Source of the DNA: Escherichia coli
GTDB taxonomy: Bacteria; Pseudomonadota; Gammaproteobacteria; Enterobacterales; Enterobacteriaceae
Length of the DNA: 64,000 nucleotides
Reading direction: 5' to 3' (one strand)
Assembly: GCF_030013595.1 (NCBI RefSeq)
Contig: NZ_CP122768.1
The stretch's first letter is position 1; each line of letters opens with the position of its first letter. Positions 19,806 through 58,691 of this stretch are shown here, piece after piece. The position numbers and the translations under genes were made by a program. Below the pieces are notes generated by a model, which saw nothing but the letters and a program-made list of their open reading frames with translations, was not told the DNA's origin and searched no databases.

Positions 19806-21395
19806 ATGAACAATAACGATCTGGTCGCGAAGCTGTGGAAGCTGTGTGACAATCTGCGCGATGGCGGCGTTTCCTATCAAAACTACGTCAATGAACTCGC
19901 CTCGCTGCTGTTTTTGAAAATGTGTAAAGAGACCGGACAGGAAGCGGAGTACCTGCCGGTAGGCTACCGCTGGGATGACCTGAAATCCCGTATCGGTCAG
20001 GAGCAGTTGCAGTTCTACCGTAATCTGCTGGTACATCTGGGCGCCGACAATCAAAAGCTGGTGCAGGCGGTGTTCCAGAACGTCAACACCACCATTACCC
20101 AGCCGAAACAGTTGACCGAACTGGTCGGCAATATGGATTCACTGGACTGGTACAACGGCGCACACGGTAAGTCGCGCGATGACTTCGGCGATATGTACGA
20201 AGGGCTGTTGCAGAAAAACGCCAACGAAACCAAGTCTGGCGCGGGCCAGTACTTCACCCCGCGTCCGCTGATTAAAACCATTATTCATCTGCTGAAACCG
20301 CAGCCGCGTGAAGTGGTGCAGGACCCGGCAGCCGGTACGGCGGGCTTTTTGATTGAAGCCGACCGCTACGTTAAGTCGCAGACCAATGATCTGGACGACC
20401 TTGATGGCGACACGCAGGATTTCCAGATCCACCGCGCGTTTATCGGCCTCGAACTGGTGCCCGGCACCCGTCGTCTGGCGCTGATGAACTGCCTGCTGCA
20501 CGATATTGAAGGCAACCTCGACCACGGCGGCGCAATCCGTCTGGGCAACACCCTGGGCAGCGACGGTGAAAACCTGCCGAAGGCGCATATTGTCGCCACT
20601 AACCCGCCGTTTGGCAGCGCCGCGGGCACCAACATTACCCGCACCTTTGTTCACCCGACCAGCAACAAACAGCTGTGCTTTATGCAGCATATTATCGAAA
20701 CGCTGCATCCCGGCGGTCGTGCGGCGGTAGTGGTGCCAGATAACGTGCTGTTTGAAGGCGGCAAAGGCACCGACATCCGTCGTGACCTGATGGATAAGTG
20801 TCATCTGCATACCATCCTGCGTCTGCCGACCGGTATTTTTTACGCTCAGGGCGTGAAAACTAACGTGCTGTTCTTTACCAAAGGGACGGTGGCGAACCCG
20901 CATCAGGATAAGAACTGCACCGATGATGTGTGGGTGTACGACCTGCGTACCAATATGCCGAGCTTCGGCAAGCGCACGCCGTTTACCGACGAGCATTTGC
21001 AGCCGTTTGAGCGCGTGTATGGCGAAGATCCCCACGGTTTAAGCCCGCGCACTGAAGGTGAATGGAGTTTTAACGCCGAAGAGACGGAAGTTGCCGACAG
21101 CGAAGAGAACAAAAACACCGATCAGCATCTGGCTACCAGCCGCTGGCGCAAGTTCAGCCGCGAGTGGATCCGCACCGCGAAATCCGATTCGCTGGATATC
21201 TCCTGGCTGAAAGATAAAGACAGTATTGATGCCGACAACCTGCCGGAGCCGGATGTATTAGCGGCAGAAGCGATGGGTGAACTGGTGCAGGCGCTGGGCG
21301 AACTGGATGCGCTGATGCGTGAACTGGGGGCGAGCGATGAGGCCGATTTGCAGCGTCAGTTGCTGGAAGAAGCATTTGGTGGGGTGAAGGAATGA
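19806..21395 (+). CDS. hsdM: type I restriction-modification N6-adenine methyltransferase M subunit
   Basis: 529-aa ORF with the NPPF catalytic motif (VATNPPFGS); 4-nt overlap with hsdS. Confidence 0.95.
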   Translation: MNNNDLVAKLWKLCDNLRDGGVSYQNYVNELASLLFLKMCKETGQEAEYLPVGYRWDDLKSRIGQEQLQFYRNLLVHLGADNQKLVQAVFQNVNTTITQPKQLTELVGNMDSLDWYNGAHGKSRDDFGDMYEGLLQKNANETKSGAGQYFTPRPLIKTIIHLLKPQPREVVQDPAAGTAGFLIEADRYVKSQTNDLDDLDGDTQDFQIHRAFIGLELVPGTRRLALMNCLLHDIEGNLDHGGAIRLGNTLGSDGENLPKAHIVATNPPFGSAAGTNITRTFVHPTSNKQLCFMQHIIETLHPGGRAAVVVPDNVLFEGGKGTDIRRDLMDKCHLHTILRLPTGIFYAQGVKTNVLFFTKGTVANPHQDKNCTDDVWVYDLRTNMPSFGKRTPFTDEHLQPFERVYGEDPHGLSPRTEGEWSFNAEETEVADSEENKNTDQHLATSRWRKFSREWIRTAKSDSLDISWLKDKDSIDADNLPEPDVLAAEAMGELVQALGELDALMRELGASDEADLQRQLLEEAFGGVKE

Positions 21396-22760
21396 GTGCG
21401 GAGAAATTGCCGGAGGGGTGGGTTGAGTGTGAATTATCCGAACTCGGTAACATTGTTACAGGGAAAACTCCCAGTACCAAGGAGCCTTCCAATTTTGGAG
21501 GCAGCATTCCTTTCATTAAACCAGGCGATCTTGATCTCGGTGGCTATATCATGAATACCGCCGATACTCTGACGGAGAAAGGGTTATCTCTTGTCCCCAC
21601 TCTTCCTGCCAATTCAGTCGTTGTGACGTGTATTGGAAATTTAGGAAAAGTTGGAATTACCGCTAAAAAATCAGCATCTAATCAACAAATAAATGCATTG
21701 ATCCCGTCAGAAAAGCTAAATGTAAAATTTGTTTATTACCAAATTTTAACATTAAAACCATGGTTAGAGTCTCAATCAGCAGCTACTACAATTGCGATTG
21801 TGAACAAGAGCAAATTTTCTCAGGCACCATTTAAATTCCCGTCGCTTGCCGAACAAAAAATCATCACTGAAAAACTCGATACGCTGCTGGCGCAGGTAGA
21901 CAGCACCAAAGCACGTCTTGAGCAAATCCCACAAATCCTGAATCGTTTTCGTCAGGCTATTCTAGCTAATGCTGTGGAAGGAAAATTGACCGACGAATGG
22001 CGAGCCGGAAAATGTTATATTACAGAAATCAAAAAATATCTGATATTATTCAGAATGCTCAAGTCGGATTAGTTCGTTCAGCTTCAGATCAAAGCGAAAT
22101 ATGCACTCAAAAAATGAGAACGCCTTACATAAAAATGAATAACATTCACAATGTTCTCGGAACAAATTTAGAAAAACTCGCTTATGTCAACTGTGATAGC
22201 TATGAACTGGAAAAATATAGATTAAAAAATGGAGATTGGCTCTTTAATACACGAAATAGTTATGAGTTAGTTGGTAAATCCTGTGTCTGGAATGGATGTA
22301 GCAATGCTGTATATAATAATAATATATTAAGAGTTAGACTAAAAGAAAACTACAATTCTGTTTTTTTAGATTATTGGTTTCACTCGTTCTATGGAGTGAG
22401 CATGCTTAATAGTATTAAATCCGCAACAACAAATGTTGCTGCGATATATCAGAAAGAACTCTTAAGTAAAAGTGTTCCATTCCCCCCCTTCCCGAACAAG
22501 CCGAGATTGTTCGCCGCGTCGAACAACTCTTCGCCTACGCCGACACCATAGAAAAACAGGTCAACAACGCCTTAGCCCGCGTTAACAACCTGACGCAATC
22601 CATCCTGGCAAAAGCGTTCCGTGGTGAACTCACCGCCCAGTGGCGGGCCGAAAACCCGGATTTAATCAGCGGAGAAAACAGCGCCGCCGCGTTGCTGGAA
22701 AAAATCAAAGCTGAACGCGCAGCCAGCGGGGGTAAAAAAGCCTCGCGTAAAAAATCCTGA
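21392..22760 (+). pseudogene. hsdS: type I specificity subunit HsdS, disrupted by two 1-bp homopolymer frameshifts; target-recognition domains differ from EcoKI
   Basis: three consecutive reading-frame pieces (21392..22072, 21997..22551, and a third frame to the TGA at 22758..22760); conserved central (LAEQKIITEKLDTLLAQVDSTKARLEQIPQIL) and C-terminal ([25 protein letters not shown]...) regions are recognisable. Confidence 0.8.
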
Positions 22761-22772
22761 TCATTATTTTCT

Positions 22773-57715: not shown

Positions 57716-57779
57716 ACGGTTGTCAGCCGCCCGAATGGACGTAGAATGCCCGCAAGGGCGGCTGACAGAGTAAAACGTA

Positions 57780-58691
57780 ATGGATGACTGTGGTGCGGTT
57801 TTGCATAATATTGAAACTAAATGGCTTTATGATTTTCTGACCCTGGAAAAATGCCGCAATTTTTCCCAGGCGGCAGTTAGTCGCAACGTCTCGCAACCGG
57901 CATTCAGCCGCCGCATCCGTGCACTGGAACAGGCGATTGGCGTTGAATTGTTTAACCGCCAGGTGACGCCGCTGCAACTCTCGGAACAAGGGAAAATCTT
58001 TCATTCGCAGATCCGCCATCTGTTGCAACAGTTAGAAAGCAACCTGGCAGAGCTGCGTGGCGGCAGCGATTACGCGCAACGTAAAATCAAGATAGCCGCT
58101 GCACACTCTCTTTCCCTCGGTCTGTTACCGTCCATTATCAGCCAGATGCCGCCGCTCTTTACCTAGGCGATTGAAGCCATTGATGTTGATGAAGCGGTCG
58201 ATAAACTGCGTGAAGGGCAAAGTGACTGTATTTTTTCCTTTCACGACGAAGATTTGCTGGAAGCGCCGTTTGACCACATTCGCTTATTTGAATCTCAATT
58301 GTTCCCCGTCTGCGCCAGTGACGAACACGGAGAAGCACTGTTTACCCTCGCGCAGCCACACTTTCCGTTACTGAATTACAGCCGCAACTCCTACATGGGG
58401 CGATTGATTAATCGCACCCTGACGCGCCACAGCGAGTTAAGTTTCAGCACCTTTTTTGTCTCTTCGATGAGCGAGCTATTAAAGCAGGTTGCCCTCGACG
58501 GCTGTGGGATTGCCTGGCTGCCGGAATACGCCATCCAACAAGAAATTCGCAGCGGGCAGCTCGTTGTACTGAATCGGGAAGAACTGGTGATCCCGATTCA
58601 GGCCTACGCATACAGGATGAACACCCGTATGAATCCCGTTGCCGAACGCTTCTGGCGTGAACTGCGCGAACTGGAGATTGTGCTTAGCTGA
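57780..58691 (+). pseudogene. hypT: LysR-type regulator HypT (YjiE) with an in-frame TAG at 58164..58166
   Basis: ORFs 57780..58166 and 58254..58691 are in the same frame; sequence reads ...MPPLFT*AIEAIDVDEAV... where the K-12 protein has W, from memory. Confidence 0.8.

Follow-up and report, generated by a model that had tools for sequence, protein, structure and literature searches.

The immigration control region and its broken genes

The window analysed here, a 64-kb stretch of Escherichia coli DNA, covers the "immigration control region", with mrr, hsdRMS, symE, mcrBC and Druantia III, and runs on to hypT and uxu. Differences were called mainly against the closest genome, HCP5S3_I2, which was compared across 63 kb, and the two nonsense changes were polarised with the outgroups 2012C-4221 and 18KM2445. 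Four lesions lie in three genes (Table 1), in agreement with the original prediction, which had named hsdS, a DruH-like gene and hypT as disrupted and had identified all three correctly. It had also described the neighbouring genes as intact, and this holds, because the remaining differences from HCP5S3_I2 are all synonymous, missense or intergenic; Mrr, McrBC and SymE/SymR are still intact, and the sole difference in hsdR or hsdM, H4N in hsdM, sits on the HCP5S3_I2 branch. A 306-aa Rpn gene was considered as a fourth lesion beside those in the three genes, and was ruled out as an in-frame allelic variant.

Table 1. Positions of the affected genes, their partners and the lesions within the 64-kb window
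Feature	Position	Strand	Detail or basis
hsdR and hsdM	16093..21395	+	both intact; annotation of orthologous locus
hsdS remnant, EcoKI-family (type IA) specificity subunit	21392..22760	+	coding sequence over three reading frames
First hsdS ORF, 226 aa	21392..22072	+	residues 1-213: TRD1 and the whole central conserved helix
First -1 frameshift, codon 214: A6 tract, A7 in the ancestor	22031..22036	+	comparison with relatives
Second -1 frameshift, codon 364: C7 tract, C8 in the ancestor	22482..22488	+	private to window sequence
druE, Druantia III helicase-nuclease, intact 2113 aa	25973..32314	-	PADLOC DruE3
yjiT/druH (Druantia type III DruH), amber-split into 684-aa and 405-aa ORFs	32327..35617	-	PADLOC DruH3
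TAG at yjiT codon 685 of 1096 (ancestral TTG, Leu; L685*)	33563..33565	-	TTG in relatives
hypT (yjiE/qseD), LysR-type regulator, split	57780..58691	+	128-aa HTH piece and downstream effector-domain ORF
TAG at hypT codon 129 (ancestral TGG, Trp; W129*)	58164..58166	+	TGG in relatives

The ancestral HsdS has the type IA subunit architecture of TRD1, central conserved region, TRD2 and C-terminal conserved region, and its residues 1-456 align to residues 1-464 of EcoKI HsdS (2y7c chain A; E = 4.9e-94) with near-identical conserved regions. Against the intact 456-aa ORF of HCP5S3_I2, the hsdS of the window has lost a single base at two places and carries one synonymous change, and both deletions are derived, since A7 and C8 are found in every relative compared (A7, for instance, in HCP5S3_I2 and in the comparison loci L036, L038, L040 and L041). 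The gene is thus no longer a single uninterrupted ORF, though the PADLOC Specificity_I family matches both pieces and the hsdM/hsdS overlap at 21392-21395 is kept. The frameshift at codon 214 falls where the central conserved region meets TRD2, and the 226-aa ORF closes with a tail of 13 out-of-frame residues and a stop. With no full HsdS, the intact HsdR and HsdM would be left without a specificity subunit, and from the known behaviour of these families the type I system, deprived of a canonical HsdS, would be expected neither to restrict nor to modify with its original specificity. The intact 456-aa allele of relatives is labelled "two partial pseudogenes" by PGAP, which is a mis-annotation. 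The clone's Illumina contigs are interrupted within hsdS, in a stretch of 25% GC; a repeat was considered as the cause, and self-BLAST found none.

The intact orthologue of the second gene is named YjiT by PGAP, and DruH is described as a member of the YjiT family in a variable immigration control region (PMC13192584). The two pieces in the window match positions 1-684 and 691-1099 of the 1100 positions of PADLOC DruH3 (PDLC00049; 1107 and 696 bits), while the adjacent DruE matches positions 1-2053 of the 2055 of DruE3 (PDLC00037; 2693 bits) and does not differ from that of HCP5S3_I2; of the Druantia type III pair, a full-length DruE is therefore present and a full-length DruH beside it is not. 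The C-terminal domain of DruH carries the ATP/dimer-interface residues R1064/K1067, which have been linked to nuclease activity (PMC13192584). Judged from these families, a DruH without its C-terminal 412 residues would make Druantia III defective despite the intact DruE. In several other strains Druantia III (yjiT-yjiV) has likewise decayed, with yjiT broken by an IS3 or IS100 insertion, a stop or a frameshift, but here the damage is the single point nonsense change L685*, and both halves and DruE are otherwise untouched.

The orthologue of the third gene is named HypT by PGAP. Pfam HTH_1 matches the 128-aa piece and LysR_substrate the 145/173-aa piece, so that the two domains are no longer joined in one polypeptide, and by family assignment the DNA-binding domain of HypT would be parted from its effector domain. 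The substitution lies in an ancestral Dcm site, CCTGG at 58162-58166, which now reads CCTAG. Amber hotspots at Dcm (CCWGG) 5-methylcytosines were reportedly described in lacI by Coulondre, Miller and colleagues in 1978, and the hypT change resembles these in that its G>A, at the fourth base of CCTGG, corresponds on the opposite strand to C>T at the methylated cytosine of CCAGG and creates TAG; it differs in that the lacI change is CAG>TAG on the coding strand, whereas TGG>TAG in hypT arises through the complementary strand, with Dcm activity assumed here. A second likeness is to the yjiE/qseD pseudogene of O157:H7 ('sQseD'), in which one nonsense substitution is also fixed in a natural lineage and leaves an effector-domain ORF downstream. 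The two are not the same allele, since the lesion in Sakai is an ochre at codon 17 (Y17*, TAT>TAA), whereas W129* keeps the whole HTH and linker (128 aa).

Distribution and order of the lesions in one clone

The changes in yjiT and hypT are both derived in the lineage of the window according to the two outgroups. The lineage marker KptA Q166L was found in 38 blocks of public data, and all the marker-bearing loci displayed carry the hypT TAG; at this position the DNA of L013, L014 and L042-L046 is identical. The 684-aa YjiT product was found in 26 blocks and the exact 226-aa HsdS product in 13 contigs from independent assemblies, in both cases on 100% identical DNA, against 1211 blocks for YjiT with Leu685 restored and 217 for the intact 456-aa HsdS. 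All retrieved contigs that bear the 226-aa product and cover the tract have A6, which is also present in L022-L027. The C7 tract occurs in the window sequence only: an exact-product look-up found no record of the 179/184-aa products of its second hsdS ORF, and C8 is kept in three contigs bearing a 249-aa product and in the clone member GCA_021649405.1, which has A6 and the yjiT TAG and is otherwise identical. A sister genome (L031) shares nine of the derived changes of the lineage in the overlap and yet has an intact yjiT, an intact hsdS and C8. A 41-nt megablast across the hypT TAG gave no match among 5426 complete genomes because the clone has no complete RefSeq genome.

These counts (38 > 26 > 13 > 0) suggest nested clades of one clone in which the hypT lesion is the oldest, followed by yjiT and then hsdS A6, the counts being the sole basis for placing hypT before yjiT. 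In the proposed sequence of events, W129* would have arisen by G>A at the 5-methylcytosine position of the Dcm site, L685* by a T>A transversion and the hsdS A6 tract by slippage from A7. The final change, C8>C7, may be either a recent neutral slip or a homopolymer sequencing error, and would make no difference, the gene being dead by then.

Polarisation assigned 17 substitutions and the two indels to the lineage of the window, the substitutions comprising seven synonymous, six missense, two nonsense and two intergenic changes (10 transitions, 7 transversions), a spectrum that looks unfiltered by selection. Random substitutions in the 40 CDSs of the window are nonsense in 3.3% of cases, and TAG makes up 41-45% of those; by arithmetic from these rates, two or more nonsense changes among 15 coding changes have a probability of ~0.09, only a mild excess over chance, and both would be TAG with a probability of ~0.18. 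The stops that deamination at Dcm sites could create here are all TAG and account for 68 of 292 possible events, with hypT W129 among the sites concerned. Native stops in the window are TAA in 23 cases, TGA in 14 and TAG in 3.

Weighing the explanations

Our findings are probably best accounted for by real, independent loss-of-function mutations that accumulated stepwise in an E. coli clone circulating in nature and struck genes dispensable in its niche, the loss of function of each broken product being what the sequences predict. The original prediction listed relaxed selection on defence genes among several readings, and its interpretation is partly supported: relaxed selection on, or decay of, dispensable and mostly defence-related genes is upheld by lesions that are real, by counts that suggest nesting and by relatives that bear different lesions in the same region (IS3/IS100 in yjiT, IS1 in an espX-like gene, an rpn frameshift and a gntP stop), while the other readings mostly are not. 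That the lesions might be sequencing or assembly artefacts of the source assembly is highly improbable. The two hsdS indels each remove one base from a homopolymer, a typical error of long-read or 454 data; no G/C run in the 64 kb reaches seven besides the ancestral C8, and C7 is in no other assembly. Against this, A6 and both TAG codons recur on identical DNA in many independent assemblies, including short-read Illumina/Logan contigs and NCBI drafts, and the comparison with the nearest genome shows no further indel in 63 kb, with runs of A8 and A9 unchanged. Because of this recurrence the three shared lesions are real and clonal, and assembly error stands as a candidate for C8>C7 alone. An origin in a stock that had been mutagenised, long passaged or kept in the laboratory, or in a mutator lineage with lesions throughout the genome, is very unlikely as well, although there are 17-19 substitutions on the branch of the window and 7 on that of its sister HCP5S3_I2, non-synonymous changes (missense and nonsense) are about as numerous as synonymous ones (ratio ~1), A:T>T:A makes up an unusual 5 of 17 changes, all in a 5'-CA context, and the accession of the nearest sister, UFZA01, appears on our reading to be of culture-collection style. 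The three lesions A6, yjiT TAG and hypT TAG occur in assemblies of at least seven accession series with occasional SNP differences, and so predate any single stock; a similar density of pseudogenes is seen in the region in relatives. The spectrum is unlike those of mismatch-repair, mutT or mutY mutators, and a mismatch-repair mutator was rejected with 7 of the 17 substitutions being transversions. There is likewise only a very slim chance that the clone has a tRNA with a CUA anticodon and that yjiT and hypT are read through and still functional. Both nonsense codons in the window are indeed TAG, both persist in the clone, and a suppressor of the leuX type (supP), by inserting Leu, would give back the exact YjiT sequence. 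The original observation that both nonsense lesions are amber stands within the window but does not extend beyond it, as clone members carry gntP E118* by TAA ~1 kb past position 64000, and neither this ochre nor the two frameshifts could be rescued by an amber suppressor. TAG is moreover the commonest new stop to be expected, one of the two arose at a Dcm hotspot, the codons replaced encoded different residues (Leu and Trp), and native stop usage is normal. ARAGORN and Rfam found no tRNA gene in the 64-kb window, and our literature search for amber suppressors in natural isolates found only genetic-code-engineering papers. Since W129 has been struck by TGA in other strains, a truncated HypT is evidently tolerated without suppression. 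The supE/supF backgrounds of laboratory K-12 would account for tolerated TAG lesions, but here no suppressor tRNA lies in the window and the TAG codons coexist with frameshifts and an ochre stop. The two TAG stops are best explained as a coincidence aided by mutational bias, with no read-through mechanism.

An unlikely reading, though one less remote than those above, is that the lesions rewired their systems rather than disabled them. In this case the A6 half-HsdS, with TRD1 and the central conserved helix, would homodimerise and give HsdM and HsdR a new palindromic specificity, while the split of hypT would yield separate HTH and effector polypeptides and altered regulation, comparable to the truncated QseD of O157:H7; jointly with this, and with the same low probability, the recurrent W129 stop would have been selected for uncoupling the DNA-binding domain from the HOCl-sensing domain. 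The frameshift falls directly after the central conserved region and ahead of TRD2, hsdM and hsdR are intact, and A6 persists in at least 13 assemblies. Precedents of a working half-HsdS exist: an engineered HsdS cut short at the corresponding point (CC398-1 'half S') formed dimers, methylated a palindromic site and supported restriction with HsdR (PMC6158711), and a G-homopolymer truncation of the NgoAV HsdS of N. gonorrhoeae is functional with altered specificity (PMC6789123). As in those proteins, truncation just past the central conserved region leaves TRD1 and one conserved helix; theirs, however, are active with a new specificity and the NgoAV tract is phase-variable, whereas the present product is of EcoKI type, its tract has gone only from A7 to A6, and any activity it has is hypothetical. 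Neither precedent, however, is an EcoKI-family (type IA) one, the helix may be destabilised by the tail of 13 residues, and the A7 tract, 6-7 nt among the sequences compared (A6 in the contigs with the 226-aa product, A7 in relatives with the intact gene), is probably too short for a contingency locus. The C tract occurs within the clone as C8 and as C7, the latter in the window sequence only. A further frameshift and a base change lie downstream, as in a dead gene, though these would be equally neutral if only the first ORF mattered. As for hypT, stops at W129, some TAG and others TGA, are found in at least six allelic backgrounds, and the truncated QseD of EHEC is reported to repress ler (PMC5053249); but such recurrence is expected from a Dcm hotspot with very deep sampling, variant queries found W129 stops in only 2 + 2 (~4) of the 5426 complete genomes, and the O157 lesion is at another codon. 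Stepwise loss of dispensable genes, in turn, has points to answer. Four disruptive changes among 19-21 in the lineage is on the high side, the nonsense changes alone having the probability of ~0.09 given above even without any selection; three of the ~7 youngest changes fall within the 1.4-kb hsdS, for which random mutation alone is insufficient even though hsdS holds 10 of the 86 homopolymer runs of six or more in the window; and the 226-aa HsdS keeps TRD1 and the whole central helix, an architecture that works as a dimer elsewhere (PMC6158711).

Consequences for annotation

Our verdict is ordinary pseudogenisation of dispensable genes, and new biology would follow only if a methylome bears out the half-HsdS idea. 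For sequences of this kind, a pair of amber codons in the same window should not be taken as evidence of suppression, and a single homopolymer indel private to one member of a clone should be distrusted without reads. The main value of these findings lies in annotation: the strain and its clone mates should be scored as type I R-M negative, with the specificity subunit missing, as DruH-defective for Druantia III despite an intact DruE, and as carrying a truncated HypT.

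Disrupted genes and their setting

Comparison with relatives bears out the lesions named in the original prediction, namely two frameshifts in hsdS and amber codons in yjiT (druH) and hypT, and the observation of three disrupted genes is confirmed; the interpretation placed upon it is partly supported. Megablast places the window in the E. coli chromosome, where the gene order runs from dnaT and dnaC to tsr, mrr, hsdRMS, symE and mcrBC, and onwards through the Druantia type III pair (a DEAD/DEAH helicase gene and yjiT), yjiR, mdtM, an espX-like gene, iatD, kptA, iadA, hypT, iraD and the uxu genes; this segment is the "immigration control region" of E. 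coli. Over 63 kb, 26 substitutions and two 1-bp indels separate the window from the nearest complete genome, HCP5S3_I2 (NZ_CM149870.1), from a pig, which also carries two IS elements absent from the window; no complete RefSeq genome identical to the window was found. Leaving aside the lesions and the IS elements, this relative differs from the window only by synonymous, missense and intergenic changes, so the genes around the lesions are intact, as had been claimed; Mrr, McrBC, SymE and SymR are among these. The SymR antitoxin RNA, the only Rfam family in the 64 kb, lies opposite the symE 5' end (22917-22993, minus strand), and a lineage-specific symE change, H5N, falls at 23000, 7 nt from SymR. 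A shorter Rpn protein was considered as a further lesion and rejected as an in-frame allele. The IS elements of HCP5S3_I2 comprise an IS3-family copy beside yjiS (window 36272-36277) and an IS1 within the espX-like pentapeptide-repeat effector gene (window 45871-45879). That effector gene is intact in the window (44669-46639) and encodes 656 aa, against 696-712 aa in relatives, a difference that probably reflects repeat-number variation.

Lesions in the window and in the adjoining gntP gene
Lesion	Position	Strand	Relatives or carriers
hsdS, first -1 slip (A6)	22031-22036, codon 214	+	relatives A7
hsdS, second -1 slip (C7)	22482-22488, codon 364	+	relatives C8
yjiT amber (TAG)	33563-33565, codon 685	-	relatives TTG
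hypT amber (TAG)	58164-58166, codon 129	+	relatives TGG
gntP E118*, GAA>TAA (ochre)	~1 kb past window end; retrieved loci L042-L044 1-369, L004 27072-28415		clone members and HCP5S3_I2

Clonality and probable order of the lesions

The A7 and C8 runs are present in all relatives compared, and with 2012C-4221 and 18KM2445 as outgroups both nonsense changes are derived on the window's branch, the lineage since its split from HCP5S3_I2. The gntP stop is shared by HCP5S3_I2 and the clone (the assemblies carrying the window's lesions), and is older. Since the exact products recur on identical DNA in independent assemblies, hsdS A6 and both TAG codons are real and clonal, and the suggestion of assembly error survives only as a possibility for C7. 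The 684-aa YjiT fragment occurs in 26 blocks, among them NCBI draft assemblies and several SRA runs assembled by Logan, on DNA 100% identical to the window or one SNP apart; YjiT with Leu685 restored is common, in 1211 blocks. KptA Q166L, a missense change that marks the window's branch, is present in 38 blocks; hypT is split at codon 129 in all loci displayed, whose DNA matches the window exactly over up to 19 kb. For hsdS, the exact 456-aa product is likewise common, in 217 blocks of public assemblies, the 226-aa fragment of the A6 state on 13 contigs, always accompanied by T>C at 22128, and the 249-aa product of A6 with C8 on three; an exact-product look-up in public assemblies returned no record of the window's 179/184-aa products. 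Clone member GCA_021649405.1, otherwise identical to the window over 6.7 kb, has C8. C7 therefore reflects either very recent slippage or an error in the homopolymer. Ancestral C8, the window's sole G/C homopolymer of at least 7, is the likeliest site for both, and C7 is without consequence either way because hsdS is already frameshifted upstream.

A sister genome, GCA_900448395.1, shares nine derived substitutions of the window's branch in a 23-kb overlap, has intact yjiT and hsdS with C8, and differs there only by the yjiT TAG, mdtM L31R, one synonymous site and the C run. Together with the declining counts (38, 26, 13 and 0), this suggests that hypT W129* would have arisen first, followed by yjiT L685*, then hsdS A6 with 22128 T>C, and lastly C7. 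The mdtM change (CTG>CGG at 39590), a radical missense in a multidrug efflux transporter, is young and shares its short branch with the yjiT stop. Three of the approximately seven youngest window changes (A6, 22128 T>C and C7) lie in hsdS (21392-22760), a denser cluster than expected of a gene spanning 2% of the window, although 10 of the window's 86 homopolymers of at least 6 nt fall within it. Contigs of five independent short-read clone assemblies stop within 22317-22423, part of TRD2 at 25% GC with no repeat elsewhere in the window, which makes a coverage drop the likely cause.

Gene decay and the amber codons

On the window's branch there are 17 substitutions (7 synonymous, 6 missense, 2 nonsense, 2 intergenic) together with 2 indels. 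Nonsense changes make up 3.3% of all possible substitutions enumerated over 40 CDSs, giving P ~0.09 for two or more among 15 coding changes with purifying selection absent, and P ~0.18 for both being TAG, which accounts for 41-45% of possible new stops (TAA 34-39%, TGA ~21%). New stops are biased towards amber here, because all 68 stop-creating events among the 292 possible Dcm-site (CCWGG) deaminations yield TAG; four such sites lie in hypT (Q30, Q61, W129 and W246). In hypT, the fourth base of a CCTGG site (58162-58166) has gone from G to A through deamination of the methylated cytosine paired with it. A:T>T:A changes account for 5 of the 17 branch substitutions (33564, 41319, 41731, 54643 and 63241), each 5'-C[A>T], an unusual spectrum that no classical mutator is known to produce.

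Comparable decay is seen in the same region of relatives, by other routes: yjiT carries IS3 or IS100 as well as a stop, the espX-like gene an IS1, rpn a frameshift and gntP its nonsense codon. This supports the proposal of relaxed selection; the pattern fits near-neutral accumulation in dispensable genes on a young clonal branch. Because so many independent assemblies share the lesions and show microdiversity, a laboratory or long-passaged origin is unlikely and finds no support. A suppressor tRNA reading through the yjiT and hypT TAG codons is likewise disfavoured: it is not needed to explain the stops, frameshifts coexist in hsdS, the fourth broken gene, gntP, ends in ochre, TGA alleles also occur at hypT W129, and native stop usage is normal (23 TAA, 14 TGA, 3 TAG). 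No tRNA genes lie in the 64-kb window. Independent W129 stops, both TAG and TGA, occur on at least six other E. coli allelic backgrounds (L015-L021), through either selection or a hotspot with deep sampling; such stops are rare, at ~4/5426 complete genomes. In O157:H7 Sakai, hypT is also inactivated, but at Y17 (TAT>TAA).

Probable functional consequences

The hypT stop cuts HypT between its HTH/linker and effector domain. Of the PADLOC DruH3 profile, the two YjiT pieces cover positions 1-684 and 691-1099, and the adjoining 2113-aa gene is a full-length DruE3. The missing DruH residues, 685-1096, include the C-terminal domain in which R1064/K1067 form a dimer-interface ATP site tied to nuclease activity (PMC13192584), so, judging from the family, Druantia III is probably inactive in the window.

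HCP5S3_I2 has an uninterrupted 456-aa hsdS ORF, which the two 1-bp deletions split over three frames in the window. PGAP calls this intact ORF (L001 20393-21763), and that of 18KM2445 (L002 1393-2763), two 'partial' pseudogenes. The ancestral protein aligns end to end with 2y7c and by sequence belongs to the EcoKI family of HsdS. Type I enzymes require HsdS for methylation and restriction alike, so canonical type I specificity would be lost. We consider it rather improbable that the A6-truncated half-HsdS remains functional, and yet the first frameshift lies at the very point where a half-HsdS made by engineering was active, formed dimers and had a palindromic target (PMC6158711), and coincides with the natural truncation point of NgoAV HsdS (PMC6789123). 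The broken genes represent ordinary gene decay of a kind already known, and a functional half-HsdS is the most interesting of the remaining readings.
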